Positions 12,702 through 64,000 of a stretch of 64,000 nt of DNA are shown in pieces. Source of the DNA: Lingula anatina (taxonomy: Eukaryota; Animalia; Brachiopoda). The notes beneath the pieces were generated by a model. That model was not told where the DNA came from. It saw nothing but the letters and a program-made list of their open reading frames with translations, and ran no database searches. Where the stretch lies: contig CM120640.1 of the NCBI GenBank assembly GCA_051362555.1, forward strand, positions 26,832,225 through 26,896,224, given 5' to 3'. Made by a program: the position numbers and the translations under genes. Each line of letters opens with the position of its first letter. Within the stretch, counting starts at the first letter, position 1.

Positions 12702-13523
12702 ATGGCGTCAGAAAAGATGTTGCGAGATCAGCTGAAGGCACTCAGGGAGTGTGTGACCAAGAACCGAGTGGCATTGGTGACAGACTTGAATGTGGAAGGT
12801 CTTCTGTTGACTTTTTTGCAGCAACAGTCTCTTCTGACCGAATATCAAATAGATATAATAAGGGTACAGTATAATCAATTTATTGTTGTACCTGTATTTA
12901 GAAGCTTGAACAGTCTACATGTAGTTTGTTTCTTTAATTTGTCTTTTTCTTTTACTGGGAAGGGGAAAGGGCACATGTGGGGGGGGGGGGGGGGGTTACT
13001 TGCTTTCAACTAGATTTTTACCTTCTCTAACATAGGGCAGCTGAGTGATGATATCAACTTAATGCAAAAATTCACTCTAAACCTCTGTATTGAGATATCA
13101 GACGGAACCAGTTTAGTAAATCCTCTTGTCAAAGTACTGTACAGCCACCTACCCCACTTGGGGGTTTCCCAAAATGGTACTTTTTGTTGGACAAAGGCAA
13201 GAAAACCCTGTATCAAATGAAGTTTACACGTACAATTTTAAAAAGACCTAAGCTTACAAATACTCAGAAGTATTCATTGATCACTATATCTTTTTAAGAC
13301 ATTTCTTTTGTTGTAATTCCTTGTACAGTGTACCAAATATTATGCACATGATGCTTATGTATAACATTAAAGTTATGATTTTTGTACCTGCAGGCAGAGA
13401 AAACCAGGCATGACAAAGCTGAGAAAGTACTGGATTTCATCATAACCAAAGGTCCAGATTTTTTGGACAAGTTCATTACAGCATTGAGAGAAACGAGCCA
13501 AGACCATTTGGCTGACTTACTTG
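12702..13523 (+). other. CARD domain of paralog 1 (2 exons)
   Basis: ...VTKNRVALVTDLNVEGLLLTFLQQQSLLTEYQIDIIR|AEKTRHDKAEKVLDFIITKGPDFLDKFITALRETSQDHLADLL, a typical CARD pattern (NRxxLVxxL, LTxxQxxxI, T..KA..LLD.I..KG..F..AL..Q.HLA.LL). Confidence 0.88.
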
Positions 13524-15764
13524 GTATGTACTGTATATTTATTAACATTGCATTTATTCCAATTTTAAAACTTGTATTTTGTATTTTTGACTCAGAAGGT
13601 GTACATTTGTATCCTGTCAGCTGATATCATTATTCTTAGATGGCTCTCAGTTGCAAACATATAGGTCATGAACATAGCATTTGAGGGATTGAAATATCTT
13701 GACATACTTTAAGTGTTATTTGTAAGGTGATTGGAGTTTTATATTTATAGAGACATCAAAGAACTCTGCTCCACAGATTCCAGTGAGCATTCCAGGTGTT
13801 AAAAAGGAAACACCTTATACACACCCAATGACTGCTCCTGATACAAAGGCAGGGCATTTCTATAATGCCAGTACAATAAGTGTCCATCATCATTATGGGT
13901 CTGGAGATTCTGGTCGTGAAACCATCTACCAGCGAGAGCAGGCCATAAATCCCATGCAGATGGCATCTCCCCCAGGTGCAGTTAAGAGAAAGCCAGTTGG
14001 GCTGGTTGGATCTCCTGCTGTGAAGTTGCCACAGCGGGATTTAAGAGAGGAAATGGAAACAGAGCGCATTGGACAAACATTCCAGATTTTGGCAGAAGGC
14101 CCAAGAATAAAAGATTTGAGAGAAAAGCTGCTGTTAAGTATAAAAGCCCATGGCATGTCTTTCCATGGAGAAACACCTATGGATGGAAACTGTTTCTTTC
14201 ATGCTGTAGCAGATCAGTATGTTCGACTAGGACTTCAGCAAGGAATTACGCATAGAGAAATCAGAAAACTAGTTGTCAGTTATCTACAGGTAATCGTTCA
14301 TAATTAAGAAAACCAGAAAATTTATTTCAGTTAAAAAAATATGACTTCACACATCCTAAATGGACTTAAAAAGTGCATATCTTGCCACACCTGTACCAGA
14401 TATTCTGAGTCCAAGCAAAAGTATAACAAATTAAAGCCCATAAGGACAATCTGCAATTATAAGTTTAAGTTTAAAAATGCAGTTTTCCTAAGAGTTGTAA
14501 TATGTATTAGCCAAAGTTGTAAGCCAGGAGGCAATATAATTGAAATACAAATGTTGGTCTGATACCGCAGAGAAGGATGTTTTTGAAATTTTTTTAATTA
14601 GAGTGTGTTGGACACGTACATTACTGTATTTAGTGTGTTTCAGATTGATTATGAAGATGATAGTCAAATATTTCTCATGCTAAAATCATTTATACATATA
14701 TAATATATTGAGATCTAAGATCAGTGCATAAAAACTCTGTAAATGTCCTTGGAGCAATAATTTATCTATGCTACTGTACATACAGAAACTTTTCTATTTA
14801 TGGCCATTTTTTTTTTCTTTTTAAATTCATTTTATTTACTAATTTATTTTTTGTGATGGCACATGAAACTTAACTCATCTTGATTGTCCTTTTCAGCACT
14901 ACCAACAAGAGTACACACCACATATTAATGGTTCTGACTGGCCAGCATACGTCAGCAAAATGGCTCAGGATGGAGCTTGGGCTGATGACCTAACGATTGA
15001 CGCAACTTCTAAGGCCTTGGGGCGTAAATTGCTTATAGTATCCAGTTCTCCAGGGGCAAAAAATGGTGTCTTACAAACTATTTTTAACGGAAATGCTGAT
15101 GGGGAACCTCTCATGCTTGGTCGTTACCATGAAAATTATTATCAGAGTCTTGAAATGGCAAATGAAACAGGTTAACATTTTCCTTATGCATTTTTGTTTA
15201 AGATACATTTTGAGATGTGAAAGAAGTGTAATTTAAGATACATTTTGAGATGTTAAAAAAGTGTTAAGATGTTCTAAAGTTTTCAGGTGTTTGAACGTAC
15301 ATTCTAACTCTGATGAAAATAAGGATTGTGTAGCATCATTCCTTTGTCTCTTTTATTTTCACTAAGATTGGGCATCTATTCATCTTTCTGATTTTGAGTT
15401 GAATTCTTTTTTAATCTCAAGTATTTTCTTTATTTTTATCATATGCAAGATCTAAAAAGATTACAGACAGACTTGAAGTCAACCAGCTTCTCTGGCCCGA
15501 TGGAAATGGAAACGACGGATAGTAGTGGGACAGACTTTGTCTCCCAAATAACAGGTGTATTAGAGAAAGAAAAGGCAGGAAACAGGCAGACATCTTCAGT
15601 TTCTGCACCAGACATTCAGAGCAAGCCAAAACCAGAATTTAACCAAGCTATCAATGCTTATGAATTCAGTGAGAAGGACTTGGAATTGGTCACTAACTAT
15701 TTTTCTGAAGAAATTGCCTCTGAAGAAAAATGTGGGTTTGGTGTAGTGCATAAGGGTAGGTTGC

Positions 15765-15842
<78 letters not shown>

Positions 15843-18800
15843 AAGAGAGATAATGTGTTCATTATGTCAACCCTAATAATTTTTTCCAGTATAATCATAC
15901 AGAAAAGTGCATTTTATTATTTTTGGAAAAAAAGAAACATTTATTAATAAAAATTGTTAAAGATAATTTCAATGATGTCAGGCAAATGGTCTTGAAAATT
16001 AACTGTCAGTGATACTGGTAAACAAGTTTACAAAGAATACAAAGTGATGAAGTGAGGAAAATGTTTGATACGTTTTAGAGCTGTGATACTACATACTATA
16101 TGTGCTCACCTCAATGCAATTCTATGATTTTTATTTTCATTGCTCAAGGTGTTTTAAACCTTGAGCAAATACATGGATTGGAAGTTGCAGTTAAGAGACT
16201 TGCTGATAACAATGATTATCAAGGAACGCTGGAATTTGACAGGGTAAGTACAATTTACAAAATATTTTGAAAAGTTAATGGGAATATGTGTTACAGAAAG
16301 AGAAGTTAATGAAATTTTCCAAGCAAATTATATTATTCATAATAGTATTTTTGCTAGCTCTTCCATTGTTATACTTCATGTAAAATGTTATTAGTACCGC
16401 CAGCGTGTATGGTGGCGGTACTCATGATTGTAGTACTGACCACTCTCGTACAGCTCCACCGGCTCTGCAGGATGACGTGGGATACAAGTCACCATTACCG
16501 CTTCTCCTCCTGGACTGCTAGGACCTGTGTCCCAATCTCTTGGGTTTAGGTCACATATAATGTCAACTTGAACCCCCCTGTTTTTTTTTTTTTTTTTTTT
16601 TTTCTTTTCATTTGGTGCATTGGCCTGGGCATGACACTCAAAATTTTTTTAAAATTCAATGCTAAATATCTCCCAAACCAAAGAAATTATGGGAAAAATT
16701 GCTATTGAAGATTGATTGAAAGTCATATGTGGAGATTCCAAAATATGTGAAATACTCCAAAATTAGCAGAGATATGCCCATAGTTACTATTGAACTTGAA
16801 TGGGAATTCATATACTGGCAATCTAACTGTGACCTTGAAATTGACATTTGACCTACATTTCATGATGAACCGCACTTTGCAAATTTCACGTCCCATAGTA
16901 TATATGGGTGTATCTCTGCCAGTTTTTGAAATATAAGGGATACACCCATAGTTCCTATTCAAACATACACAAAATAAAAATATCATGTTGCCCATGTAGT
17001 CCAATGTCAACGACGAAATAAAAGGCAACACCACTAAACCTTAATATAAACAAACCTTAAAACATTGTTTCCATTACAGTATGTAAATACCTTAGATAGG
17101 AAGTCCTACTTTCAAAATCTTACTACAACCTTGAATTTGACCTTTTACTTTTCCCCACAATTTTTTTATAAATGATAATTACCTACAAAAAATGAAAACC
17201 CTAGTTTAATTACTGCATTTCCTTCAGCTTGTCAACCACAACACTACAGGTGGTGCCCCCCCTTCTTTTTCTTTCTCATACGAATACGCTTACTGCAGCT
17301 GGTGGTACAATACCAGGAGGCAGTATCGCCTCTCTGATCTAGTTTGATATGTTTTTGTGCACTGGTATTGTTCTAGGAGAAGGATTGGGCTAAGAAAAAG
17401 TATATTTATCTTCTGACTGCTATTGGAATTTGTGAGCAGTTAAAAGGGTAAGTAATTATATGAAGAAACATTTTTATCCACGTTATCAGTGTGAGCTCTT
17501 TTTAAAGATTTAAAAAATCGCTCTCTTGTTATGTCTTTTGACATTATTTTTTCATTATTAATTTAAAAATTGGAAAATGAACACACAAAGTAGATTTTTA
17601 CAACGCAGTCTTCTCTGCCCTGCTTTCACCTAGGATATGTGATTGAGCAACTTGTCCCTTTTTATTTTATGAAAAATGGGGGAATATCCGTGTCCTGTAT
17701 TTGTCATGTTTTGTTTGGTTGTGAAATTTCCAGTGTTCATATCAACCAGACTGAAACAAAATCAAGGAAATTTTATGTGCAGACACAGTAGATGCTGTAC
17801 ATATGGGCCATCACCTGTGTGGGTCATTTGCTGGCTAAAATGCAGGCTTAGTGGGTTTTCAGATTTATCATGTTTTTTTTTTCTTTCTTTACAGTATGTT
17901 CAATCATTATTTTTCTTGTTCTGAACACTTATTTTTCAGGCAATGTGTCTGTTTAAGCTAATCTTGCTGGAGTTACTGTGGGCCTTAAATGACTTACAGT
18001 TATTCCTTAAACTTTTGTGATAATTTTTCTCTATGCTTTTGATAATTTGAATATGGGCCAAAATTTACATATACTGGAAGCATTGAATAAGATTATTGTA
18101 ATGTATTATTTTTTCAAATTGCTTCTCTTTATGATAACTGACTTTATAACCTACAAGGTATTTTTTCAGTGAATACTCCAAGGCAGTGATGACAGTATAC
18201 ATGAAAGGGGGAACTTTGAAAGATCGACTTGAACAATCAAAGATTAGTGGTGAAAGTTTGGACTGGAAAACTCGCCTACGTATGAGTGTCCAGTTGGCTG
18301 ATGCAGTGAAATTTCTTCAGTCGGATGACCAGTAAGTTTTATTTACTTATCTGACTTGAAGGTACTCATAGACTTCTCTGTTTTTTAAACAAAGTTTATT
18401 CAAAATAAAGCACTAAAAGCATATAATGCTCTCTCTGGGGACCAGGAAAATTACAAAATACGCACGTGTGCACACACATTCACACACACAATTGCACACA
18501 CAAACACACACACAAAAGCGGGAAAAAAATAAAGATATGAAAAGGAATAAGAATATTTTTAAAATATATACATATATATATTTATATATAGTCATGACAA
18601 ATGTATATAGTCATGACAAATGAACTTATTAACAACTAATTTTATATATAAGCATGTTTGATATTATGTGATATTTTTCTTTGTACCATTATTATTATTT
18701 TCTACATATTCATATTCATGTTGCTGTACTTCTTTGTTTGGTATTTCAGAAGCAAGTGCATAGTTCATAAAGACATCAAATCCTCAAACATATTCCTGGA

Positions 18801-21800
18801 TGAGCATGAGAACATCAGGCTTGGAGATATGGGATTTGCAAAGATGTATTCTTTGAACTTTAAAAAGACCACAATCACCAAAAGTAAGACTAAATGTCTC
18901 TAGTTTAATGCTGTTTTATGTTAAAGTTGGTACACATGAAGTTTCTGTACATAAATAGAATTACAGCCTATTTGTTTTTGTTTCATGTTAAAATTAAAAT
19001 CTGAAGGTCTGTTCCAATTTCATCAGGTAACACCCGTCTGCACATCTACACATGCACAAACATGAATATATGTATAATTATTTTCAGCTATTCCTTTTGC
19101 TGCTGGCTATACAGACCCAAAACTTCATGAGGGACTTATAACCAAGACTACTGACTGTTACAGTATTGGGATAGGTAAATGTTACAAGTAAATTGTTTTT
19201 AGTATGTAGCATCAAGGCTTGTGGATAACTTTGTATCTTAAAAAGTGTCAATTATCTTTCTATTTTTCATTTTACTCAAATCAATACATTTCTCTTTACA
19301 AGTGAAGATTTATAGTTTTACATTGTAAAAAATTACTGGAATTGAACTTTTAGTATATTTTTATACATGGAAAATTTTGTTTAAGTGCTTGAGGAATTGT
19401 TGACGGGTGTTCTTGCCTCTGATCCTGACCCTAGTAGAGATAGCTCAGTTTCTCTTCACCTCTCCTGGAACAATTCTGGTGATGAAGAAAAGATTTTGGT
19501 AGAAAAGGGGGTTGAGCAGGTGAGTGTTTAATCTTTATCTTAAAGATGGGTCTGGCACAATTATAATGAGATATAATACATAAGACTGAATGAGTTTTTT
19601 TTTTTTTAATATCCATGTTGGACAGTGCATGTTCCTTACCTGTCAACACTGGAAATTGCTACAATGTCATGGGAGGTTGTGTGGCATTTGCAAACAACAC
19701 CCCCAACTCTACCATAGTAACTTTATTATTTTTAGACTCATTTTATGATCTCAAACAACTGATGGCAAGATCAGAAGATTTGTGGCCTGAATGCTGAGGT
19801 CTGGATTGAAGTGCCAAATCTGGAAACCCCTGGTAAAATTTGGAGAGTTGACAGGCCTGAATTTTTTTATAATGACAAATAATACTCTGTATTGCAGGGG
19901 TGGCCCAGAGAAATAAGCACAGAATTTGCTAAACTAATTAAGATGTGCAAAAAGGGAAAACCTGTGAAAAGAATCAAAATTGAAGAACTGTATGATGCAT
20001 TGTTGAAACTTTACAAGGTAAGTAATTCCTATTGACAAGTGAAGTTTAGATTGTATAGATTTTGTAAACTATATATTGTTTAATATGTAAGAATAAATAT
20101 ATAAGTTGGTGTATTCCTTTTAAATACATAAAGCCATTTTTTGCTTGGTCTAAAACCTAGTTGGTAAATGTTATCAAATTATCACAAGTTATTTTCACAT
20201 GCATTGTATTTGCCTGAAGAGGTACATTCTTATTAATTTATCTGTGTCATCATATTTTTGTTTACTTCAAATGTACTGAGTACTTCTGTTTGATAAAAAG
20301 ACAGGTTCCTTTAGAAAGTAAGCATGATCAGGTCATTTTTCCAGAACATTTTGTAAATTGTTGCATTGTTTTTGTCTATTTGGTGTCTGCATATTTGCCA
20401 GTTTGGATAAAGTAAAACCAGAATTAAAGAGGCACTTATTCAGTGACAATGTTTGGTCTTCTAGGGAGGTGTTGAAGGTGCACCTGTATATGCAGGGACT
20501 GGTGGTAAACCCATTCAGTCTGAGAAATGCCTCTACTGTTTGGTACACCAAGCAGGTATGTAAACTATATTACTGTAGAACATATTGAAGCTTGAACTAC
20601 AAAGATGAAAGGAGTCATATTGATTAAAGGATAATAGTCATATAAAAATCCATTTCTCGAATTCTGAAGATCCAGCACTTAATCTATACACTACAGTTAT
20701 GTTTTAATCGATCCCCGTCATTTAAAAATTAAAAAAACAATCTATTAGTAGACAAAAAGCGTTTTAGTAAACTTCACCTCAATATGCATAAATGAAGCAA
20801 CAGATCTGGGTCACGTGGTACTGTGACGACAATGTGGATAAAGGTCTAAGACTCAACTGAGCTGCAAGTGCATGCAGACAGAGAAGTTTAGGAAAGTTGT
20901 GTCGAACGGGGTTGAGCAATTTTCGTTATGCCTCAGTGTGTTGCCGTGGGATTCACCAAAATCGCAGCACTCGTTCACAATCTTTTCTTTGTCTGTGACG
21001 GTCTTCCGTGACTTAGTAACTTCGGTGACAATTGTTGCGATGCGATGAGATCATGGTCACCTCAGGTGGTTTAGATCATATCAAAAGCTGATAGTCTTTC
21101 AGATTAACTGTCATCAGTTGGCAAGCTTACTAATTGTTGATGCATTTTAAATGCATTGTAGTTGACCAAGAGCTCGTTAACAATAAAACCTGTTAATTAT
21201 GCACCGCTGCACTTCCCAAGCCAGGTAATAACAAGTATCAAACTCGTCTTGGTGGGCTTTCATATTTTTCAATATATCTCATTTATTTCATGGGGTTATT
21301 TTATTAGTACCACCAGCGTGTACGCTGGCGGTACTCATGGTTTTAGTCCCGACCCGTCTCGTCCGGCTCCGCCGGCTCCGCGTACTGGCGCCGGATACAA
21401 GTCACCGTTACCGCTTCTCCTCCTAGACCGCAAGGACCCCTGTCCCCATCTCTTGGATTTAGGTCACATATAACCTCAACTTGAACCCCCAGGTTTTTTT
21501 GTCTCAGTCGGTACATTGACCTGGGCGTGACGCTCCTTGAAATGCACCCTTGTCAAAATTTTTGAAAATTCAATGCCAATTATCTACCCTACGGAAGGAA
21601 TTATGGGAAAATTTTCTACAGACGGCTTTCCAAAAGTCATATGTGTAGATTTCAAATATGCCCTTGGATTTGACCTTTGACCTTAATTTCAAGGTCAAAC
21701 GGGCCAAAATTTTCAAAAAAATGAAATTTTTTTACGAAAAAAAATATTATTTGCACTGTTATTCAGACACTACACAGACTTAACCAATAATTATATTGGA

Positions 21801-24800
21801 AAGTGTTACCCTTTGGGTCATCTTTCATCTCTGTGAATTTGGGGTCAATCGGTGCATTTTCACAGGAGTAGCGGCCATAAAATACCGAAAATGAAAACTG
21901 TCTCTAATTCGGGAACCGTTAATGCTAGCGACCCGTTCTTTTTTGCATTTTGTAGAGCATGTAAAGCCCAACACTGAGAGTGGTCTCGGTTTTTTTGTAT
22001 TTCATATGGTTTTCGTGTTATGCTGTATTAAAAAGTACTTTGTGGTGGCACATTTTTTAACTCAGAATTGTAACATTTAGTCCCTTATATCTCCAAAACT
22101 GGCAGAGATAGGTCAATAGTTATTATTTAAGTTGAATAGGAAGTCATTTACTTGCAATCTAGATGTGAGCTTGAAATTGACCTTTGACCTACTTTTCACC
22201 ATGAACTGAACTTTGCAAATTTTTGTTCCCTTTTATCTCCAAAACTGGCAGAGATAGGTCAATAGTAACTATTGAACTTGAATAGGAGGTCACATACTGG
22301 CAATTTAACAGTGACCTTAAAATTGACCTTTGACCTACTTTTCACCATGAATTGAACTTTGCCAATTTTTGTTCCCTTTAATCTCCAAAACTGGCAGAGA
22401 TAGGTCCATAGTCACTATTAAACTTGAATAGGAAGTCACATACTGGCAATTAATCAGTGACCTTAAAATTGACCTTTGACCTACTTTTCACCATGAATTG
22501 AACTTTGCCAATTTTTGTTCCCTTTAATCTCCAAAACTGGCAGAGATAGGTCCATAGTTACTATTGAACTTAAATAGGAAGTCATGAACTGGCAATTTAC
22601 TGTGACCTTTAAATTGACCTTTGACCTTCCTTTTACTATGAACTGAACTTAGCAAATTTTCGTTTACCTTTATCTTCAAAACTGACAGATAGGTCCATAG
22701 TTACCATTGAACTTGAATAGGAAGTAATACACTAGCAATCTGTGACCTTGAAATTGACCTTTGACCTACTTTTTATGATGAACTGCTTTTTGCATGTTTT
22801 CTGGCCTTTAAATCTGCAAAATTGGCAAAGAAATGTCCATGGTTGCTATTGAACTTGAATAGAAATTCATATACTATGATATTGAAATTGACCTTTGACC
22901 TACTTTTTCACCATGAACTGAGCTTTGCATATTTTCTTGCCTCTCATATCTTTAAATCTAGCAGAGATGTGCCCATTGTTTCCCCTAGGTTTTCTCTTTT
23001 GTCAGCATATATGCACCATTGACAACACATTTCAAGGAAAACCAATAGGCCTTTTGTCTAGAGAATACAGTAGTGAGCAAGGGTAGGCAAATGCAAGTCA
23101 ATTTGAAAATCTGCTTGATTGTATCATTTTTAGTTATATTTTTTGCATATTTTGAGAACTCTTGTTGATTGCATCTTATAGAGCTTGTCAAACACCAGAC
23201 TGGTGATGGTGTCCCTTTTAGGAGGGGGGGGGGGGGTCCATACGAATGCGCTTACTCCAGCTGGTGGTACAATATCTGGAGGCGGTATCGCCTCTCTGAT
23301 CCTCTAGTTGGTATTTGTAAATGACGTTAAATATCAATATTTAAACAATTAAGATCAAACACGGTCGCGAACATTAATAAAAGAAATTGCTCTCAGGGTA
23401 TCTTGAAGCATGCGTATGCCCAGGCATTACTTCCTTGGAAGAAAACGTGTTGAGGAAAAACAGGAAAAAGAGCATTATATTAAAGAAAAAATGGGAACTG
23501 CTGTAATAAAATGGTTCGTAATCCTAATACTTTTATGCTTTGAAGATTTGTTTCTGAAGGTTATTTCTTCTGAAATATTAAATAATTTAAAAGGTTTATC
23601 ATTTTATAACTTGAAACGCAAGTTCTGCGTCTGTATGCAAAACTTTTTGCAGATTTGTAAGCTTTGTCAAACCCAAAAACAGGTAGCAGATCAAGGTAAA
23701 AGAGTATTGTTTGCTACGGGTAGCACGGAAAAAAAATCATAAATTTAATGTGTTTACTAAATGTGCAGTTTTACGTACGTTAGTATATTTTAAATTATGC
23801 ATGGAGATTTAACCTGGTAAGGGATGTAAGAAAGCCACAAACGGATTTTTTAAAAAGAATGTTGGGTGTAAAAAAAGAGCACTACTGATAACTTAGTTCA
23901 TTGTATATAACTTAGTATGTTATGAAAAATGGGAGATACCCAATTCTTTTAAGTATGAGCCTACAATTTTTTAATATATTGATTTAAATCCCCTCTTCGA
24001 AAAATTGTATTATAAAACCGTGCTATAAAGATCTACTCAAGAAAAAAATTGCTAGGCTAAAATTGAGTACGGAATGAACTGGAGACCCTTGGCTTGTCAT
24101 TAAGTTTTCACGAAAATATGTCAGATAACTTTATACTGTCCTTGAAAGAGTAAAGATTGAAAGATAATTTTAGACAAATAGACAAACTTTGACGGAGGAA
24201 ATATCAACAAAGAGTAAAGGGCTATTGTGCCAACATCTTGTTGAAATTTTTACACTGCAATTCTATTTAAATAAGCTAAGGAACTAATTGCCAAATTTAG
24301 ACTTTCATCACACAACAGGGGCGTAACCAGACCTGCAAAAGTTGTACGCACAGATTAAAAAAAAGTACAAGCACGTACAGCAAAATGTAGACTAACGCAA
24401 AACATGAAGGACAGCGTAATCACAGCAAATGTACCTCATATAGTAGCTTAATTTCCATTAATAATAAAATCATCATTTAAGTCAAAAATATTCTCGCGAT
24501 TTAATAAATATTCTAATGTACCCAGAACGGTATATTTATTTAAAAGGAGGCTAACTGAAATATTGTTTTATTATTTGTTTGTGAAAATTGCTCATGTCAC
24601 CCTGTTAGTTTGGAGGTCTAAGCTGGATCAAGTCCATGTTAAAATTCCTATGAAGCTGTGCAGGAAAAAATCTTCCTTTGTTTCTCTAGCTCCTCGATAA
24701 ACCTGGTGTTCAGATTGTATCTAGTACCCCCAGGTCTGCGGGAGCTGCTCTTTGAAACCAACGCACAGGTAGATTTTTACCTGAGATAAATATCGCCAGC

Positions 24801-26915
24801 CATTTAACCCTCTAATTAAGAGGTAAAGGAAGTTCCAGTTAGATGGATGATTAAGATAGGACTGGTAAAGGGCACTGTTTACCTCTGTTTAATAAAAGTA
24901 TGCAAGACGGAGTGTCAGCGGTTTAATAAAATTAATTGAATTTCACAAATAACATGGACCTCATATGCAGTAATCAACAGAACCCTTAACTCATTCAAAT
25001 GCAATGTTTTATACAACTTGGGATAACCATAATTAAATGCTTGTTAAAGAATTGACTAGACGGGAAATGGTTTTACACAGCTTCACGAGGATTAAGACCC
25101 CTCGGGTAAGAGATTTGAATGAGTATAAACTTTTATCAGAAGCCAGAGAAGTCATCTTACAGGTAGACAATGCAGCTCAGTTTGACAGCTAAGCATGCTC
25201 TGTTCTCCGGTGGCTTGATTGTCGTCATCAGACCACGTGACCACGTAGCTCATTAACTCCCAGGCCGAGCAAATAGGACGTTTTATAAAGCCAAAAATTT
25301 ACAAAATGAGCTTTTAATTTGTGTATTTGGACAAAGATATCGTTAATTGGGCATGTTTTCTGAAGAATATGTTCCGTTGAGGCCATTATGACGGCATGAC
25401 GCAAATCCTTTAAGTTATACTTTTTGTGTGTATTTATGAATTTACCATAATGATAAAAATACTGTATAAATGCCATGGGCATTTTCTATTTCAGCAAACA
25501 GTCAGCTCAGTTGTGGATGCAAGTTCCTTTGTACTCACTGCATAGTTGAACGCACCAAGGAGAACAAGAGCATATGGTGCATGTTGCATATGGAAGAAGT
25601 TGAATTTAAAAAACGTAATATGTTTGTGTGTACTGTATGTGTATGTGAAATTCTCCAGTTTCATATTTGCAAAAATCACATCACTTTACAAGGCTTACTT
25701 GCAAATCAATAAAAACTGAATGAATCTGAATATCTTTTTACTTAAATCATATTATAAAAAGCAGTATCAAGAAGGTTGGCAGTACAAATGACAAATCATG
25801 AAGATGATTTTCTCATTCGCCTGCAAGTGTAATCTGTGTCCTTAATTTCTTTTTAGAAAACTTATACTGTGATGGAAATTTTACCAAGCTCTTTGATGCC
25901 AGTTACCCAGTGGTTTCACTTGTCAAGTTGATCAATTCCAAGATAGACAAGCATTGGAAATCAGTTGGCCTGATAAAAGTCATAGATAGATGTGGTGAAG
26001 ACCGTGCCGTTGCCACAGGGTTCAAAATAGGTGGAAATTATTTGATGACGAATCGTCACATTGTTAACAGTTTCGGAGAAGGTAAAGTGATGATGCTAAC
26101 AAGATGTGTTTCAAAGGTCTTTTGAACTAAAAGTTTAAATGTATTTATGATGGTTTACTGTTGCATATCAAAACATTTTATAAGGGTGCCTTGTAGTATT
26201 TGTGAAAACTGAGAACATGCTTTTATTTAAAGCTCATTATGATATCTTTAGAAATACACATTGAAGTATTTTGACAATTGGGTACTAAATCAGGAGGTGG
26301 GGGCTGGGGGAATATTGCATTTACTTCATTTTTTCCTGCTCTACAGGTTTCCGAGGAGTCAAGGTAGAATTTGGATATTTGCAACAAACTTCAAGAACAA
26401 CAACATATAAATTTGTCAATATGCCATGGTACAGTGAAGTATTGGATGCAGCTTTGTTCCACATTCACAACGTAGACAGCCATGATGTTGTACCAGATTT
26501 AGACTGTGATATAGCAGATGTCGAGCCAGGAAAGGATGTCTGTATTGTAGGACATAATAAATGTGATCCATTAAGATATGACCCAGATACAAAAATACTT
26601 AGCAATTTCGATGTTCAAAAAGACATAGATTTCACACTGAAAACCTACCCTTCAGCCAGTTTTACAAATGCATATGATAGAAATCGACAGTTTATGAAGT
26701 CAAGTTTTATGCATGGGGCATCTGGGTCACCTTGCTTTGATGAATATGGTAACCTTTCCCTAATGTATACTGCAGGTTATCCTGATAACTATAAAGAGCT
26801 GCGTATGGCACAAACTGTATTTGAAGAGGGTGTTAAAATGAGATGCATATATGAAGAGTTAAAGAAAGAAAAGCCAGAGTTGGTGTCAGATCTGTTCCCA
26901 AATGTCCGCATTTGA
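12702..26915 (+). CDS. Multidomain protein, paralog 1: CARD - OTU-like - Pelle/IRAK-like kinase - variant RING - FAM111-like trypsin serine protease (~1072 aa)
   Basis: Coding exons 12702-12863, 13394-13523, 13751-14289, 14897-15170, 15450-15755, 16149-16243, 17377-17447, 18170-18331, 18750-18883, 19088-19174, 19386-19519, 19898-20017, 20465-20555, 25495-25614, 25857-26081, 26347-26915. All introns are GT-AG and phases are compatible; total 3219 nt = 1073 codons with no internal stop. Every non-OTU exon is conserved in paralog 2. Confidence 0.85.
14076..15156 (+). other. OTU-like cysteine protease (deubiquitinase) domain, paralog 1 only
   Basis: TPMDGNCFFHAVADQ (Cys codon 14191-14193), HREIRKLVVSYLQ, YVSKMAQDGAWADDLTIDATSKALG, LMLGRYHENYYQSL. 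One internal intron at 14290-14896. Confidence 0.88.
15655..20017 (+). other. Pelle/IRAK (RLK-Pelle-like TKL) kinase domain, paralog 1
   Basis: YEFSEKDLELVTNYFS, GFGVVHKG, VAVKRL, EFDRE, YMKGGTLKDRL, LDWKTRLRMSVQLADAVKFLQ, IVHKDIKSSNIFLDE, RLGDMGFAK, GYTDP, DCYSIGIVLEELLTG, WP. Confidence 0.88.
16388..17344 (+). mobile_element. HINE family A (Helentron-associated, DINE-1-like), internally deleted copy in a paralog 1 kinase intron
   Basis: 5' TTATTAGTACCGCCAGC plus palindrome; 3' subTIR GCTGGTGGTACAATA, stem-loop GAGGCAGTATCGCCTC and CTAGTT end; about 2 degenerate central repeat units. Confidence 0.8.
20628..25409 (+). mobile_element. Kolobok-like DNA transposon (decayed), 4.8 kb, in the RING intron of paralog 1
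   Basis: TTAA TSD at 20624-27 and 25410-13. Termini AGGATAATAGTCAT...ATGACGCAAATCCT (imperfect TIR, AGG/CCT). The empty site GATTAAGTTATAC is present in paralog 2 (~62122-62134). Possible decayed THAP start MPQCVAVGF at 20928. Confidence 0.8.
21301..23309 (+). mobile_element. HINE family A, full-length, nested in the Kolobok-like element
   Basis: 5' subTIR and palindrome (TATTAGTACCACCAGCGTGTACGCTGGCGGTAC), CCGGCTCCG mini-repeat, about 7 central ~146-bp repeats, 3' subTIR GCTGGTGGTACAATA, hairpin GGAGGCGGTATCGCCTC, end CTCTAGTT. Confidence 0.85.
25950..26915 (+). other. Trypsin-like (Trypsin_2 / FAM111-like) serine protease domain, paralog 1, with intact triad
   Basis: SVGLI...ATGFKIGGNYLMTNRHIV (His 26057-59), SEVLDAALF (Asp 26445-47), IVGH, FMHGASGSPCFDEYGNLSLMYTAG (Ser 26721-23). 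The motif layout resembles the FAM111A/B protease. Confidence 0.88.
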
Positions 26916-27751
26916 CTTAACTAGAGTTGCTACAACTCTGTTTAAGATTACAGAAAAGTCACTGAAGTGTTGCATATTTTTCTGTACAAAGCAACTTACT
27001 TTAATAATTAGGAGTTCTCTGAGATTGGTAGGTGGAATTGAAATGATATATTATAGAGGTTGCATCTGCATTAATATTTGCAGCAATGGATGCATTCTTC
27101 CTCTCTTCACTATTGACAGTTTTGTGTTTTACAAGTTTTATTGTATATAATATATAATAATATTGGAAGAGGAAAATTTATAAATGTTGTCATCTGTACC
27201 ACATTGTTTTAGCAAGAGCTAATATTACACAAATTATTTTGATATTTTACAGTAATTTTATGTATATTGAATGTCCTTGGGACCATAAACTTGTTACCTG
27301 TAATATCACATTTGTGTGGTTTTCCAATTTGCTTCAGAAACAACCCACTTTGTAATTAAGATATAATGCCTTTAAAATATACTTTGAAATATACACAATA
27401 ATGTAGTGTTTATTGATAAAATAACCTTATTGGATGAAATTGAACCTTTCCATTTGCATGTACAAAATGAACAGGAGTTTTTAGCTTTAGATTCTATTAG
27501 CAGATGTGTTCCTTTATGTGCTACAAAACCTAGTATTAGTGCTCTTCACCTTAAAACTGCGACAGCAATTTATAGCAGAATATTATTCATTTTAGTGTTC
27601 ATGATAAATTTTATCACCAAGTACAAAAATAAATGATAGTCAATTAAGTAGTAGATGAACCTTCACATTGATCTTTAAGTTGAAAAGGCAAATATATGCA
27701 TGATTGTAATAATCAAGTGAATAAAAAAAATGTCAAAAAGGAATAAATATC

Positions 27752-31084: not shown

Positions 31085-31430
31085 TTTTCTCGTTTTCAAA
31101 CTGCGCATGCGCAGTAGAGGTTGGCAGAGACCAACAGCGAATTGTGAAAGTAACATTAATAGTTGTTTTGGCGATATTAAACAATAAATCTTCTAGGTTA
31201 AGCAGCCAGGGAGTAACTCAGTACATGTAAGTAAATTTCTTTGAGCCGCAGGAATGGAAGTCTGACCTCCAGTTTGGTTAGTTAGAGTTGACATTTGTGA
31301 GACGGTGCAGGTGAATGGCCGCAGGTGAATTGAGAAACTACTCTAAGCGGACTACTGTTCCTCTCACACCGCCACATCACAAAGCCAGGATATACTTCTG
31401 GTCAATATCTATAATATAATATAATATAAT
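31085..31430 (+). promoter_or_regulatory. Putative promoter and 5' non-coding exon of paralog 2 (duplicate of 12085-12460)
   Basis: Palindromic ACTGCGCATGCGCAGT at 31100-31115 (NRF1-type) and donor ACAT|GTAAGT at ~31227. Colinear with the paralog 1 upstream region, and homology resumes at ~47597. Confidence 0.6.
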
Positions 31431-35973: not shown

Positions 35974-36838
35974 GGAACCATTAATGCTAGAGACCTGTTC
36001 TTTTTTGCATTTTGTAGAGCATGTCAAGCCCAACACTGGAAGTGGTCTCCGTTTTTTTTATTTCCTTATGGTTTTCGAGTTTAGCTGTATCAAAAAGTAC
36101 ATTGTGGTGGTGAAAACAATATGTGCAATACGGTAATGTATAATAAATTTTGAATCTCTGGAAAATAAAAAACAAGGCTTGGCGAGGCAGACAACTTCTG
36201 GTCAAAAATGACATTATTTCATGAAATTTGAACATCTGGAACTTCTGAGCACCTCCCATTTCAAGAATTTCAACCAAAATGACCTTTTCTTTATTTCAAT
36301 TAATTTCTTTTGTAGGACATTTATGGCACATAATTGTAACTCTGAAATTGTACCATTTAGTCCCTTATATCTCCAAAACTGGCAGAGAAAGGTCCATAGT
36401 TACTATTGAAGTTGAATAGAAAGTCATATACTGGCAATTTAACAGTGACCTTGAAATTGACCTTTGACCTACTTTTCACCATGAACTGAACTTTGCAATA
36501 TTTAAGACCCTTATATCTCCAAAACTGGCAAAGAAACGCCCATAGTTACTATTAAACTTGAATAGGAAGTCATATATTGGCAATCTAACTGTGACCTTAA
36601 AATTGACCTTTGACCTACTTTTCACCATAAACTGAACTTTGCAACTCTTTTAATGCTTATACATTCAAAAATGGCAAAGATACACCCATAGTTACTATTA
36701 AATTTGAATAGGAAGTCATTAGAGGCAATTTTACTATGATCTTAAAATTGACCTTTGACCTACTTTTTCACCATAAACTGAACTTTGCAAATTTTTGTTC
36801 CCTTTTATCTCCAAAACTAGCAGAGATAGGTCCATAGT

Positions 36839-37006
36839 CAGGGGCGGATTTAGACCGTCTTCTGGGTCTTCCGGAAGACGGTCATATTTTCAAGTTTACA
36901 TTGACGGGTATCTAATTTTTTCTTTTGGAAGACGGTCAAAATTGGAGGACGAATCAACAAAGATAATTTGGAAGACTGTCGGTAAATAGCTCTAGATCCG
37001 CCCCTG
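36839..37006. mobile_element. 168-bp MITE (CAGGGGCGGA TIR), with further copies at ~34426-34520 (short) and ~51440-51608 (degenerate)
   Basis: ATAGT|CAGGGGCGGAT...ATCCGCCCCTG|ATAGT, inserted in a HINE repeat unit. Shared core CTTCTGGGTCTTCCGGAAGAC. Confidence 0.75.
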
Positions 37007-38562
37007 ATAGTTACTACTGAACTTGAATAGGAAGTCATATACTGGCAATCTAACTGTGACCTTGAAATTGACCTTTGTCTTACTTTTTATCATGAATTGA
37101 ACTTTGCAAATTTTCATTCCTTTTTATCTCCATAACTGGCAGAGATAGGTCCAAAGTTACTATTGAACTTGAATAGAAAGTCATACATTGGGAATCTAAC
37201 TGTGACCTTAAAATTGATCTTTGACCTACTTTTCACCATGAACTGAACTCTGCAACTTTTTCAGTGCTTATACTTTCAAAACTGGCAAAGATACTCCCAT
37301 AATTACTATGAAATTTGAATAGGAAGTCATATATTGCAAACAGAACTGTGACTTTAAAATCGGCCTTTGACCTACTTTCCACCATGAACCGCACTTTGCA
37401 AGTTTTCCTTTATATCTCCAAAACTGACAGAGATACACCCATAGTTACTATTAAACTTATATAGGAAGTCATATACTGGCAATCTAGGTGTGACCTTTAA
37501 ATTGACCTTTGACCTGCTTTTCACCATGAACTGAACTTTGAAAATCTTTCTTCCCTTTTATCTCCAAAACTGGCAGAGATGGGTCCATAGTTACTTTTGA
37601 AGTTGAATAGGAAGTCATATGCTGGTAATCTAACTGTTACCTTGAAATTTACCTTTGACCTACTTTTCATGATAAACTGCACTTTGCAAATTTTCTGATC
37701 TTTATATCACAATAACTGGCAAAGATCTGCCCATAGTTACTATTGAACTTGAATAGGAAGTCATATACTGGCAATCTAACTGTGATCCTGAAATTGACCT
37801 TTGACCTAATTTTCACCATGAACTGACTTTTGTAAATTAACTTTTCCTTATATCTCAGAAACTAGCAGAGATACACCCAAAGTTACTGTGAACTTGAATA
37901 GGAAGTCCTACATTGGCTATATAAATGTGACCTTGAAATTGACCTTTGACCTACCTTTTATGATGAACTGCACTTTGCATGTTTTCTGGCCTTTAAATCT
38001 CCAAAATTGGCAAAGAAATGCCCATGGTTACTATTTGAATAGGAAGTCATAAACTGTGGCATTGAAATTGATCTTTGACCTTCTTTTTCACCATGAACTG
38101 AACTTATTTTCTTGCCCCTCATATCTTCAAAAATAGCAGAGATATGCACAGTGTTGCCCCTAGGTATTCTCTTTTGTCGGCATATATGCAATGCTGACAA
38201 CACATTTCAAGAAAAACCAATAGGCTTATTGTCGAGAGAATCATAGAAGTGATCAATGTTAGGAAAATACAGGTCATTTTGAAAATCTGCCTGATTGTAC
38301 TATTAGTTATATTTTTTGGCATTTACTGCCTATTTTGAGAACTCTTGTTCATTGCATTTTATAGAGCTTGTCATGCACAAGACTGGTGGTGGTGTCCCTT
38401 TTTTGGGGGTGGGGGGTGGGGGTCCATATGAATGCGCTTGCTCCAGCTGGTGGTACTATATCCGGATGCGGTATCGCCTCTTTGATCCTCTAGTTAAAAA
38501 AAAAGATACATCTTTGCACAGCAGTCGTAGATCGGTACGATTCAGTTGTTAGTTACGAACTA

Positions 38563-47889: not shown

Positions 47890-50800
47890 ATGGCATCAGG
47901 AAAGATGTTGCAAGAACAGCTGAAGGCACTCAGTAATTGTGTAACCAATAACCAAGTAGAATTGGTGACAAACTTGAATGTGGACGTTCTTCTGTTGTCT
48001 TCTTTGCAAGAACAATCTCTTCTGACACAATATCAAATTGCTGTAATAAAGGTAGAGTAATCAATTTATTGTTATATTAAAAAGCTTGTACAGTAGTTTG
48101 TTTCTTTGTTTTTTGCTTTTACTGGAAGGGGGAAGGGCACATGTGTGGGGTTTACTTGCTTCCAACTAGATTTTTACTTCCAAGTTTTCCACCAGATGCC
48201 AGCTGAGTGATGATTTCAACTCTGCAAACATTCTCTCTAAACCTCTGTATTGAGATACCAGATGGAACCAGTTTAGTAACTCCTCTTGCTAAAGTTCAGC
48301 CACCCACCTGACCTAGGGGTTTCCCAAAACCACTACGTGTGTGTGTGATGGAAGGGGGGGGGGGGCATAGGGACTGTTCACAATATATTTTATCGGCTTA
48401 ATGCCAATGCACCAGGACTTGCTGACTACAATCAGTTTTAACAGACTGACATGCCTCCTCTTGTTAACAGCGTACTCACATAATCACCAGCTTTGATTTA
48501 TGATGTTGTTGTGTTACATTTGCATGGAGTAAAGCCCCCTTTACACTGGACGGCGTCCTTTCTGCGTCCAGCAGTACGGCCCCATTTGAGAGTTAAAAAA
48601 TTATAATACTTTTCATGCCGACAACTGGCCGATCACTGAGCATTCATTCTGCTACAAAATCAATGCTCGTGCCTCCTTATTAAGACCACAGCGATGCCAA
48701 ATTTCATGGTCGCAGAAAGGACGCCGTCCAGTGTAAAGGGGGTATTAGTGTGCAGTAGTAGTGGTCCTTCAAATACTAGTATATCATACACTAGAGTAAG
48801 TAGTTAAGATCAGAGCAATTAATTGACTTGATCACCTGCCAAGAGATTGGTCAGGGACTAGTTAAGTGTCAGTGCCTGAGCAGTTGGTAATAAAGGACTC
48901 CGAAGAAAATCAGACATGCTGAAAAATTTTCAGAATGGCCAGACATTTGGACTGGCAGTAATGAAAAATTTGCCGGACCGAATGGATTTTTGTCAGGCCG
49001 AAAATCACCCTATTTGTTCGAGACAGATACTACCAGTACGTTTAGGTAGCTTACTTTGTTTGTGGATGTGATAGGTTTTAAATGGATGGGAAAAACACTT
49101 TGGGTTTTTTATAATTTTATTGGTGAATTATGTCTAATGATGAATGTAAATTCAAAATTGTGGTTCTTAAAACTCTTGTCAGTCCTTTAGACTGACCAAG
49201 TCCAATTTTTTACCCGTCCAAAAAAATGCTTGGTCATGACCGATCGGACTGACAGTTTCAGCAAGTCTGGAAGATAGATTATGCTAGAAATGTAATGTAA
49301 TGTGGCTTCAAATGGTGTAAGACACAAAGCTGTTCATTTTTAGCTAGATATATATGGGAGCTGAGACATGGGTGCGAAGTAGAAGCAGATTTTCCAACAG
49401 CATGGTAAGACAATGTCTGTACATATAGCCATCACCTGCGTCTTTTGTTGCTGTTGTGGAAAACCATTGTTCTTTTTGGCTTGAAACTTACAGAACTGAT
49501 GAATATCCATTATACACAGGTCAAGTTAAAAAATCAGCTTTTATTGTGCATTGTGTAATAAAGTATCAAAAATGGAAAGGAACTCATATCATTGCAGTTC
49601 GTCAGATTCAATCATTCACTAAGTTAAGAATCTCAGAATGGAACAAGTTGGACATTTAAATTTGTTCTATTGATATTTTTCCTTTGACAACATATTTTTT
49701 AATTGATCATATAAGAATTACAGTAAATCGCTTATTTTGTTTTATGTAAAAAAGGTGTTGAAAATGGAAATAAACTCTTTTCAATACAGTTTTCTCTTGT
49801 TTAGATTTTGGGATTTTCAAAGTGTGACTCTGAACTCTATGGGCTAGACACATTTTCTGAATATCCATGATAGTTTTATTTTATCATTAAAAAACTGATG
49901 GTTATTATGCTGTTAAGCATTGTGTAATATTGCATCAAAATTGAACAAAACCCTATTTTGGGCACTGCCTCCGTAGTGACCGTGAAAGGACAACCATGTC
50001 ACTTGCTTTTTTCACACTTAAAGGAAAGAAACATAGGACTGAAATACAGCTTCAGTTGGAAAATCTGTCTCATTAGTTAATTTTCTGGAAGTTATAGAGT
50101 TTTTTTTGTGAAAATTTTTATCTTTCACATACTGGAATTTTCAATGTGGGACTTAGAGCTCCCTTGGGCATGAAGCCCAGTGGTAATCAAATTTTCTTAA
50201 TGTCCATGTTTTTAATAGTAGATATTTAAAAATTGGTGGTATGTATACAGTTAATCATTATGTAATGGTGCATCAAAATTGACAAAAACCTACTTTATGC
50301 ACTGCCACCATTAACTTTATGGAAAGAAAACTGTTACTTTCTATTTTTTCAACTACATGTAGTCTTACAAGAATGATTCTTAGGATTGACATACAGCTCA
50401 TATTAGAAAACCAGCTCTATTAGATTATCATTTTTATTAAATTTATGCATTTTTTGTGAAATTTTCATTTTTCTCATTCTGGCACTTTCTAAGTATACAC
50501 TTGAACTCTGATGGGCCTGAAGCCTTATGCTTTTACTTTCGTCAGTGTTACCTGTTGTGCATAATTAAGATTTGATGTTGACCATGCAGTTAAACAAAAT
50601 GTATTATTGTATCAGAATTGGTAGTCTCCTATTTTGTGCATTATTGTTTTGTGCTTTTCTTAAGGTGTGACTTATGGGCCTGAAGACCTTTGAATGGGTC
50701 AGTCTGTAAATTTCCCTTGGGTATCACTAGGCTAAGTTCAGAGTTATAAAGTCATTTGCCTAATTAATAGGCCATTAAATGAGATTACATAAAGCAAACT

Positions 50801-53800
50801 TGTTGATATTTCCCTGTAAACTCCCAAAGGTTAAGCTCTCTGCTAGATTAATAATAAGGAAGCAGTGATAATTATGCAGGTGAATTTTGTTTAATATTGC
50901 AAATAAGTTTTTAATATATATATATATATATCAAACTCAAAGATTAAAAGTTTGAATAGCAGCTTCATTGGAATTATATTTACCTCTGCCAAGGAGGTTA
51001 TGTTTTCACCCCTGTTTGTCTGTCATCAACATTACTGAAAAAGTTATGTACCGATTTTGATGAAATTTTCAGGAACTGTCAGAAGTGGGTCAAGGAGGAC
51101 AATGATTAGTTTTTGGTGGTGGTTCGGATCAATAATCTATCAATAATCAATAATAATAAAAAATTGCTGCCTTGGCAGAGGTCTGCACTCTCAGAGTGCT
51201 TTTCTGGTTTTATGTTTTCCTTTTTAATTTTTTCTCAAACACTGGCATTTGTGACTTTTAACTCCCATCCGCCTGTGGCTCTGCACATTTTCTGTATTTC
51301 CACATAAGCAGTTGTATATTGGTTTTTATGTCTTTAAACATTATGTAATATTATTTTATGCACTGTCATCATTTTCAAATATTGGGACTTTCATCATGTG
51401 AATTTGAACTCTCATGGTCCTGAAACTGTAATCTTATCGAAGGGATGGATTGAGACCATCTTCTGGGTCTTCCGGAAGACAGTCAGGTTTTTAAGTTTAT
51501 ATTGACCGATATCTATTTTTTTTTCTGTTGGAAGACCATCAAAATGGAGGATGGATCAACATAGATACTTTGGAATACTGTCAGAAAATATCTCTGGGTC
51601 CGCTCCTGTTATTGACCATGTTACCTGTTGTGCATGATTAAAATTCAGTGATGACTAACAGTGCTATATATAAGCATTATTTATTATTGCATCAAAATTG
51701 ACAAAATGACCTATTTTGCATCTTTATTTTCTGTTTTTTGTCTGTACATATGACAGCTTTGCTGCCTTGTTTTCATTTGGCATTTTGAGCAGATAATGTT
51801 TGTAAAAATTTGGGTCATATGAAAACCTAATACAAAGATTGAAAGTGAAAAATTGTGCTTTTATTATTTGTCATCTTTCTTTTAAATAACTAGCTTCATA
51901 GACTGACAGCTAAAAATGACTAGCCGGCTTTATGTTTCACACTGTTCGACATCACATATGTTGCGCAATTTGTCTTCTCGAGGGTCTTTTATTATAAGAA
52001 CCAACTTGGAAATTATTGGTTGGAATTCATCACAGTTGGGTCAGAGTTCGGAGACGTGCACAGAAATAGCAAGGGAAATATCTGTGAATATTTAATGAGC
52101 AATCAATGTATTGGCCCTTGGTAGAGGGTACTTTTTGTTTGACAAAGGCAAGAAAACCTTGTATCAAATTAAGTATACACATATAATTTTCAAAAAGACC
52201 AAAGCTTACAAATGCTCAGTGGAATTATTTGATCACTATCTCTTTTTAAGACATTTCTTTTGTTGTAATTCCTTGTACCAATACGTTGTACAAAATATTA
52301 TGCACATGATGCTTATGTATACCATTAAATTTATGATTCTTTGTGATGATGTACCTCTAGGCAGAGAAAACCAGGTTTGACAAAGCTGAGAAAGTACTGG
52401 AATTCATTCAAACCAAAGGTCCAGATTTTTTGGACAAGTTCATAACAGCATTAAGAGAAACAAGCCACGACTATTTGGCTAACTTGCTTGGTATGTACTG
52501 TATATTTATTAACGTTGCAATTCTAAAACTTGTATGGGTATAATATTTTTGACGTGGAAGGTGTACATGTGTATCCTGTCAGCTGATATCATTATTCTTA
52601 GATGTCTCTTAGTTGCAAACATATATAGGTCATGAACATAGCATTTGATGGATTGAAATGTCTTGACATACTTTAAGTGTCATTTGTAAGGTGATTGAAG
52701 TTTTATATTTATAGAGACGTCAAAGAACTCTGCTCCACAGATTCCAGTGAGCATTCCAGGTGTTAAAAAGGAAACACCTTCTACATTCCCAATGACTGCT
52801 TCTTATCCAAAGGTAGAGCATCATTATAATGCCACCACAATAAATGTTCATCATTATGGATCTGGAGATTCACGTCATGATACCATCAACCAGCAAGAAC
52901 TGGCCAAAGATCCCATGCAGTCGGCACCTCCCCCAGGTGCAGTTAAAAGAGAGCCAGGTGGGCTGGTTGGATCTCCTGCTGCGAAGTTTCCACAGCGGGA
53001 TTCAAGAGAGGAAATGGAAACTGGGTGCATTGGACAGGCAAATGAAACCGGTTAACATTTTCATTATGCATTTTTATTAAAGATACATTTTGGGACGTGA
53101 AAGAAGTGTAATTTAAGATACATTTTGAGATGTGAAAGAAGTGTAATTTAAGATACATTTTGAGATGTGAAAGAAGTGTTATGATGTTCTAAAGTTTTCA
53201 GGTGTTTGAGTGCACATTCTAACTATGATGAAAATAAGGATTGTGTAGCGTCATTCCTTTGTCTCATTTATTTTCACTAAGATTGGGCATCCATTCATCT
53301 CTCTGTTTTTGAGTTGGATTCTTTTTAATCTCAAGTATTTTCTTTATTTTTATCATATGCAAGATCTAAAAAGATTACCGTCAGACTTGAAGTCAACCAG
53401 CTTCTCTGGCCAGATGGAAATGGAAACAACGGATAGTAGTGGAACAGACTTCATCTCCCAAATAACAGGTGTATTAGAGAAAGAAAAGGCAGGAAACAGG
53501 CAAATGTCTTCAGTTTCTGCACCAGACATTGAGAGAAAGCCAAAACCAAAATTCAACCAAGCTATCAATGCTTATGAATTCAGTGAGAAGGACTTGGAAT
53601 TGGTCACTAACTGTTTTTCTGAAGTAATTGCCTCTGAAGAAAAATGTGGGTTTGGTGTAGTGCATAGGGGTAGGTTACATTTTTTGTCAAGAGAGAAAAT
53701 GCCTTCATTATGTCATCGTAATTCATTTTTTCCAGTATAATGATACAGATAAATTACATTTTATTATTATTTTCGCTTAAACTTTTTTTTATATTTTTAT

Positions 53801-63617: not shown

Positions 63618-64000
63618 CTTAACTAGAGTTGCTACAACTCTTTTTAAGTTTACAGAAAAGTCACTGAAGTGTTGCATATTTTTCTGTACAAAGCAACTTA
63701 CCTTAATAATTAGGAATCCTATTGGTAGGTGGAATTGAAATGATATATTGTAAGAATGAAAAGGTTGCATCTGCATTATTATTTGCGGCAATGGATGCCT
63801 TCTTCCTCTCTTAACTATTGACAGTTTTGTGTTTTACAAGTTTTATTGTATATAATATATAATAATATTAGATGAGGAAAATTTACAAACGTGTTAAAAT
63901 TTGTAAACGTGTTGTCGTCTGTAACACATTGTTTTAGCTTGAGATAATATTACACAATTTATTTTGATATTTTGCAGGAACTTTATGTATATTGAATGTC

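Follow-up and report, generated by a model that had tools for sequence, protein, structure and literature searches.

How do two neighbouring copies of one gene come to differ by one whole protein domain? The question is raised by the 64,000-nucleotide stretch of Lingula anatina DNA analyzed here (the window), which contains two head-to-tail copies of one gene, P1 and P2, about 21 kb apart. All features described lie on the forward strand. P1 (12702-26915; gene model and Pfam) has 16 coding exons and encodes 1072 amino acids arranged as CARD, linker, OTU, linker, IRAK-like kinase, RING-like finger, and FAM111-like trypsin protease. The CARD (Pfam PF00619, 12702-13523) is encoded by exons 1 (12702-12863) and 2 (13394-13523). 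Exon 3 (13751-14289, phase 1 to 0) carries the linker and the first half of the OTU domain, including the codon for the catalytic Cys245 of the DGNC Cys loop (14191-14193). The OTU is interrupted by a 607-nt GT-AG intron in phase 0 (14290-14896) that has the same loop and phase as the intron of other animal-type OTU modules, and exon 4 (14897-15170, phase 0 to 1) is the equivalent of the second exon of such modules. The OTU corresponds to Pfam PF02338 with a score of 54.8 bits against a cutoff of 23.3 (in P0001, the Lingula anatina protein XP_013387807), and neither OTU exon half searched singly matched a solved OTU at significance. The kinase occupies exons 5-12 (15650-20017) and its best solved-structure match is IRAK4 (E 1e-22). 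The RING-like finger of exons 13-14 (20465-25614) was recognized by its Cys/His pattern and has no Pfam match at the cutoff. The protease of exons 15-16 (25857-26915) retains the His/Asp/Ser motifs of a trypsin-fold serine protease, has a Pfam match, and has FAM111A as its nearest solved relative (E 1.2e-7). P0001 matches the spliced P1 model at every junction; splicing of the OTU intron is supported by this NCBI model and by the GT-AG frame.

P2 (47890-63617) has 15 coding exons and encodes 909 amino acids with the same domains minus the OTU. Its frame is intact, with no stop or frameshift in the 909 codons. In a self-comparison of the window, the region upstream of P1 (12084-12451) has its P2 counterpart at 31086-31419, and about 16 kb that is absent from P1 separates this copy from the P2 start codon. 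P2 intron 1 contains about 3.8 kb of additional sequence. These large insertions in P2 (31420-47587 upstream and about 48330-52126 in the first coding intron) are rich in repeats.

The segment absent from P2 (14076-15156) comprises 214 nt of exon 3, the intron, and 260 nt of exon 4, so the 1081 extra bases of P1 are 474 coding nucleotides plus 607 of intron. ATTGGACA ends at 14075 in P1 and at 53036 in P2, and GGCAAATGAAAC starts at 15157 and 53037, respectively. The P2 junction between 53036 and 53037 is blunt and in frame, and lies within P2 exon 3 (52715-53050, 336 nt, phase 1-1; gene model and DNA contig). The cassette encodes P1 residues 207-364 and the whole Pfam OTU match falls inside it. 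The breakpoint register is unique because a 1-base shift in either direction produces one more mismatch; therefore, there is no microhomology (0 shared bases at the two breakpoints), and no target-site duplication was found at the ends of 14076-15156. The similarity of the cassette ends is no better than chance (18% of 1879 random coding pairs score as high), direct or inverted repeats at the ends are at chance level only, and no second cassette copy was found within the 64-kb window. The coordinates and composition of the difference thus agree exactly with the preliminary description, and the junction alignment bears out its statements that the breaks are mid-exon and in frame, that a DNA-level event separates the paralogs, and that target-site duplication and long microhomology are lacking.

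A misassembly that dropped the OTU segment from P2 would create the same difference. The P2 junction is matched by no RNA read and a near-length protein without the OTU was not found in the protein collection, as misassembly would predict. The assembly of reads from DNA run X2 (2025, an independent study) refutes this explanation. One X2 contig covers 52751-53110 with 0 differences from P2, reaching 286 letters on one side of the junction and 74 on the other, and another X2 contig departs at 53036 into OTU sequence. Since the independent run contains both junction forms, the paralog difference is not an assembly artefact; the raw-read check that the preliminary description had proposed comes out in favor of a real P2 junction, and misassembly retains practically no probability. 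A second DNA run, X9, had no sequence placed on the junction region.

Expression was assessed with two same-species RNA runs, each sampled to about 6%. At a threshold of 85% likeness, 47 reads could be placed on the P2 stretch; not one of them was at least 99% like P2, and read depth was zero beyond position 53041. Seven reads (3 and 4 per run) continue from 53036 into the OTU, and no read in these samples (two runs, about 6% of each) continues into the P2 exon end. Among the variants listed, 36 of 40 carry the P1 base, and 19 more variants exist. OTU-bearing transcripts therefore exist, and P2 was not detected in these samples. The animals sampled for RNA may not carry P2.

The timing of the OTU gain was addressed using relatives of the protein. 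A profile over all 1073 positions was searched against 1.84 billion protein representatives, and the best 150 hits were mostly kinases. The nearest proteins are the uncharacterized Lingula anatina P0001 and XP_013388096 (P0002), both of which bear the OTU. A distant Lingula paralog, LOC106174184 (P0004), has a CARD, kinase, RING-like finger, and protease at 35% identity, and P0156 from Ptychodera (reached via P0102) has two death domains, a kinase, and a RING-like finger. The OTU is absent from both. A kinase tree of 34 rows has the topology (P0156,(P0004,(P1,P2,P0001,P0002))) with support of 98-100. Polarization by other paralogs and relatives, as the preliminary description had suggested, is thus provided by two successive OTU-less outgroups, and because both outgroup kinases are without it, the OTU was gained a single time in the kinase family. 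At the linker position that the OTU occupies in P1, P0004 and P0156 contain a UBA-like helical unit (Pfam E 0.07-0.1). The units of the two proteins resemble each other (p 0.026), and the unit model has a pLDDT of 85 with weak top fold matches to tandem-UBA proteins (E 0.06-0.7). Homology of the P1 and P0004 linkers across the junction was not significant (p 0.5-0.6), nor was a RHIM-like linker motif, considered because of a likeness to P0156 (p 0.19). LOC106174184 has an annotated CARD-less isoform (P0153 compared with P0004), so domain-dropping variants recur in this kinase family.

The Lingula copies differ in their relationships from region to region. P1 is 93-100% identical to P0001 and P0002 in the CARD and linker, and P2 is 75% identical. 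P1 groups with P2 in the RING and protease (100% and 90%). The OTU is 89-99% identical among the copies that have it. Because the copies are mosaic by region, gene conversion among them is inferred. The P1 and P2 proteins are 75-100% identical depending on the region, with a dS of 0.12-0.22 between the genes and a dN/dS of 0.53 for P2. Relative rates with P0004 as the outgroup gave 5 P2-derived and 1 P1-derived changes in the CARD, 4 and 6 in the kinase, and 3 and 4 in the RING plus protease; these are few changes in every region. In the DNA comparison of 12702-14075 with 47890-53036, identity is 84% for exon 1, 88% for exon 3 left of the break, and 90-95% for the adjoining introns; dN in the CARD plus linker is 0.13 between the paralogs. 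The low likeness of the CARD and linker exons has three possible explanations: diversifying selection, a relaxation of selection on P2, and gene conversion acting on the introns.

The intron in the OTU and the phases of its exons bear on how the domain was gained. The nearest OTUs occur in unrelated architectures, including kinase-OTU-OTU in Amphiura, OTU-OTU in Sinanodonta, and an OTU within a Roc domain in Branchiostoma, and related modules are also found with Death or PDZ domains. The Branchiostoma protein (P0132) is a Roco protein in which a Cys/His-intact OTU module lies inside the Roc GTPase domain (residues 404-782), and it has a C-terminal trypsin-like protease. A phase-0 donor splits the OTU 40-42 codons after the DGNC Asp in 10 of 80 metagenome loci belonging to five families, with splice sites predicted from sequence alone. 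The hosts of these loci are inferred to be animals because the loci contain introns. The P1 intron is 36 codons after the Asp, in the same loop, where a 4-6 residue alignment gap blurs the exact position. A phase-1 acceptor is located 48-58 codons before the Asp in 8 of the 10 intron-bearing loci (L068 has three candidates), and the repeat unit of the Amphiura tandem OTUs starts 52 residues before the Asp. The second exon is visible in two families, and the phase-1 donor at its end lies 11-12 codons beyond HYxSL. P1 exon 4 ends likewise with a phase-1 donor after 15170, in the 7th codon beyond the His-strand motif. P1 has no intron at the usual 5' edge of the module, and its nearest is the phase-1 start of exon 3, 144 codons before the Asp.

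On these predicted boundaries, OTUs of this subfamily travel as a symmetric pair of exons with phases 1-0-1. Among shuffled domain exons in lancelets, phase class 1-1 predominates, and 1-1 exon shuffling is described there as the common route (PMC4284660). The OTU resembles the lancelet cases of that report in being a promiscuous domain with symmetric phase-1 boundaries and many architectures (PMC4284660). It differs in that the module has two exons, the Lingula form is without the 5' intron, and the paralog difference ends mid-exon. The view in the preliminary description that DNA-level shuffling, and not the shuffling of whole exons, moved the domain is probably wrong, given the movement of the subfamily as an exon pair. 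A later deletion in P2 is the likelier source of the mid-exon breaks.

The history favored here, held as fairly probable, is an old gain of the exon module followed by a blunt, in-frame deletion in P2. The OTU module would have entered on the long branch that follows the divergence from LOC106174184 and kept its own 3' exon end, and its 5' intron would have been lost or bypassed. After tandem duplication, one copy would have lost 1081 bp through homology-free end-joining, a deletion that would have joined exon 3 directly to the 14-nt tail of exon 4. This fits the alignment of the paralogs, in which the last 14 nt of the apparent module exon (15157-15170) are retained in P2, as are the donor and the intron that follows. 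The opposite order of events, in which P2 is the ancestral empty site and a mid-exon-to-mid-exon fragment of a host OTU module was inserted bluntly and in frame into the P1 linker exon after duplication, is a possible but distinctly less probable account; both weightings are judgements and were not computed. Insertion requires one event rather than two, the outgroup kinases are without the OTU, and P2 lies outside the OTU-bearing copies in the CARD and linker. The breaks also lie within the usual exon limits of the module (the left one 35 codons ahead of the Asp, the right one 2 codons past the last motif), and the 5' intron of the module is missing in P1. An extra step is needed under the deletion reading because P1 has no intron at this edge. 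Deletions of the observed class, with an end in the exon-4 tail, constitute only 3-5% of in-frame, splice-intact deletions that would remove the core, and this rarity also favors insertion. Counting further against a deletion, parsimony in the 5' region with P2 as an empty site costs one event only, and the 3' donor of the module is visible in only two families.

The donor search weighs against insertion, which would be a recent gain yet has no donor of at least 45% identity. No close donor OTU at this level exists among the best 150 hits apart from P0001, and the other OTU hits among these 150 are 32-39% identical. Simulated relatives at 45% identity score 110-149 bits and would have entered the best 150, the lowest of which has 109 bits. 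The closest OTU in a separate search of 203 candidates is only 32% identical. A donor may be hidden in a 50% cluster, unannotated, or lost. Insertion also requires a chance landing 14 nt upstream of a phase-1 donor placed at the distance usual for the module, and two blunt in-frame junctions in place of the 1-1 exon shuffling described as common (PMC4284660). All three Lingula copies are already fixed for a His-to-Tyr change. In the OTU tree, which includes 37 hand-picked single-exon loci and three rows that are half-domains, the Lingula pair falls in a polytomy with a stem of 0.77 and tips of 0.057. The corresponding stem of the kinase tree is 0.93, close to the OTU stem, and the OTU stem is well above the P1/P2 divergence. 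The residues ERIGQTF straddle the left break and show a suggestive, nonsignificant likeness to the first helix of the module; homology of residues 196-206, left of the break, to this helix was not significant (p 0.09-0.13).

Delivery of the OTU by a transposon (Helitron or Ginger) or a virus would also be a form of insertion. The preliminary description had noted that OTU domains are cargo of some transposons and viruses, and this is evident among the fetched loci: the same broad OTU type occurs in three Helitron ORFs (L020, L049, and L095), an OTU occurs in an integrase-Ulp1 ORF (L031), and 16 loci are viral. Ginger1 elements and Helitrons are known to carry OTU domains (PMC2836005). The OTUs of these elements are uninterrupted by introns and score lower, with best scores of 68 bits for Helitron L020, 63 for integrase L031, and 51 for a virus; the intron-bearing modules score 99-107 over two exons. 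An intronless OTU-PDZ locus scores 90 bits. The cassette ends have no terminal repeats, target duplication, or transposase remains, and the cassette has a host-like GC content with no second copy in the window. Such delivery is accordingly very improbable. The preliminary description had left the choice between capture and clean deletion open; of the two, a deletion is the more probable, with P2 keeping the exon tail and donor, and transposon or virus capture is not supported, given the intronless, lower-scoring OTUs of these elements. L031 (1838-4669) combines the integrase, Ulp1, and OTU within a single ORF, and Ginger1 transposases are reported to have Ulp1 or OTU and never both in the account of PMC2836005.

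The Lingula OTU has an intact Cys245 in the DGNC Cys loop, and the catalytic general-base His is replaced by Tyr358 (TAT, 15137-15139, located by alignment) in P1, P0001, and P0002, a change that the preliminary description had missed. The column contains His in 63 of 66 rows and Tyr in the 3 Lingula copies (66 of 114 domain rows reach the column, near-duplicates included). The column was checked against alignments of OTUD5 and OTUD1. The OTU profile matches OTUD5, OTUD3, and OTUD1 with E values of 1e-13 to 5e-9. The OTU model has a pLDDT of 74 and a fold TM of 0.64-0.70 to OTUD proteins, and Foldseek matches it to OTUD5 (E 1.4e-7). In bacterial OTUs, exchange of the His for Ala abolished activity in all that were tested in the cited study (PMC7396840). 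The Lingula OTU is predicted to be inactive because its catalytic His is replaced by Tyr, and P1 is thus predicted to contain a pseudo-deubiquitinase. A non-catalytic role is likely because the domain is in frame, transcribed, and 89-99% identical among copies, and loss of the His would fit such a role. The domain resembles OTUD5/DUBA, OTUD3, and OTUD1 in profile, fold, and the DGNC Cys loop, and differs from them in the Tyr and in being embedded in a kinase-RING-protease protein. FAM105A/OTULINL is a known OTU without a full catalytic triad (PMC3705208), and the Lingula domain is like it in combining the OTU fold with an incomplete triad. FAM105A/OTULINL is a stand-alone member of the OTULIN subfamily, and the Lingula OTU is of the OTUD type with the Cys kept and the His lost.

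The P1-type gene is likely an immune-signaling kinase gene. Like IRAK4/Pelle, P0156, and P0004, it combines a death-fold domain with an IRAK-like kinase. The RING-like finger is common to the Lingula family, P0156, and P0004, and the protease is also found in P0004 (35% identity). P1 differs in having a CARD rather than a death domain and an OTU in place of the UBA-like repeats of P0156 and P0004. FAM111A is described as antiviral and dimerization-dependent (PMC10920703, PMC10469034), and its protease (PMC9798293) is the nearest solved relative of the P1 C-terminal domain. The P1 protease is fused to a CARD, kinase, and RING, and the FAM111A protease is fused to ubiquitin-like domains. In the mechanism proposed, the P1 protein would be an innate-immune signaling unit clustered through its CARD, and the kinase and RING would assemble a platform bearing phosphate and ubiquitin. 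The predicted inactive OTU would bind or shield ubiquitin chains where relatives carry UBA-like repeats, and clustering would activate the FAM111-like protease. P2 would be a copy of low expression that has no ubiquitin module and is either decaying or a low-level partner. The intact frame of P2 over 909 codons with its dN/dS of 0.53, and the possible absence of P2 from the animals sampled for RNA, count against this view.

Integrated decoy domains occur in the paired NLRs and the kinase fusion proteins of plants, and the preliminary description had drawn an analogy to integrated domains in paired immune receptors. P1 resembles such proteins in having a foreign, possibly inactive domain in a presumed immune protein that is absent in a neighboring paralog, and P1 and P2 differ from plant NLR pairs in being head-to-tail kinase duplicates with no head-to-head arrangement and no NLR domains. 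A more speculative proposal, rather improbable when all its parts are taken together, is that invertebrate IRAK-like kinase-RING proteins have an exchangeable ubiquitin-reading position, flanked by the death-fold domain and the kinase, which is filled by tandem UBA repeats in some members and by a shuffled OTU module in this Lingula family. Converted by a single His-to-Tyr change, the OTU would be a non-cleaving chain reader, or bait for pathogen anti-deubiquitinase factors, wired to the protease, and P2 would be a sensor-free partner. The mechanisms considered most probable here are ordinary ones, namely gain by shuffling of an exon module and loss by an in-frame deletion from one tandem copy. 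The apparently unreported part is the gene architecture with a predicted dead OTU; no description of a CARD-kinase-RING-protease protein with such a domain was found in the literature searched. A natural protein pair that differs by one whole domain allows a direct test of the change from an enzyme module to a binding module after shuffling. The locus also cautions that mid-exon breakpoints between paralogs should not be taken for insertion boundaries.

Further differences between the paralogs lie outside the OTU region. The RING exons (19283-27275 compared with 60790-64000) are the same in P1 and P2 at the protein level and 76-78% identical to the reference proteins, and this shared stretch is likely a gene-conversion tract. 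The kinase catalytic loop reads HKD in P1 (18750-18883) and HRD in P2 (58644-58777), and the activation-loop residues that follow differ strongly between the two. No ORF of at least 200 codons is present in the window outside the protease exons. A 146-bp tandem repeat is found in 3-9 copies at 22081-22968, 36356-38035, and 55241-56513. The repeat makes up the 3' portion of a dispersed element with a common head (at about 21298, 34588, and 54220), and this element is located in introns of both paralogs at non-matching sites.
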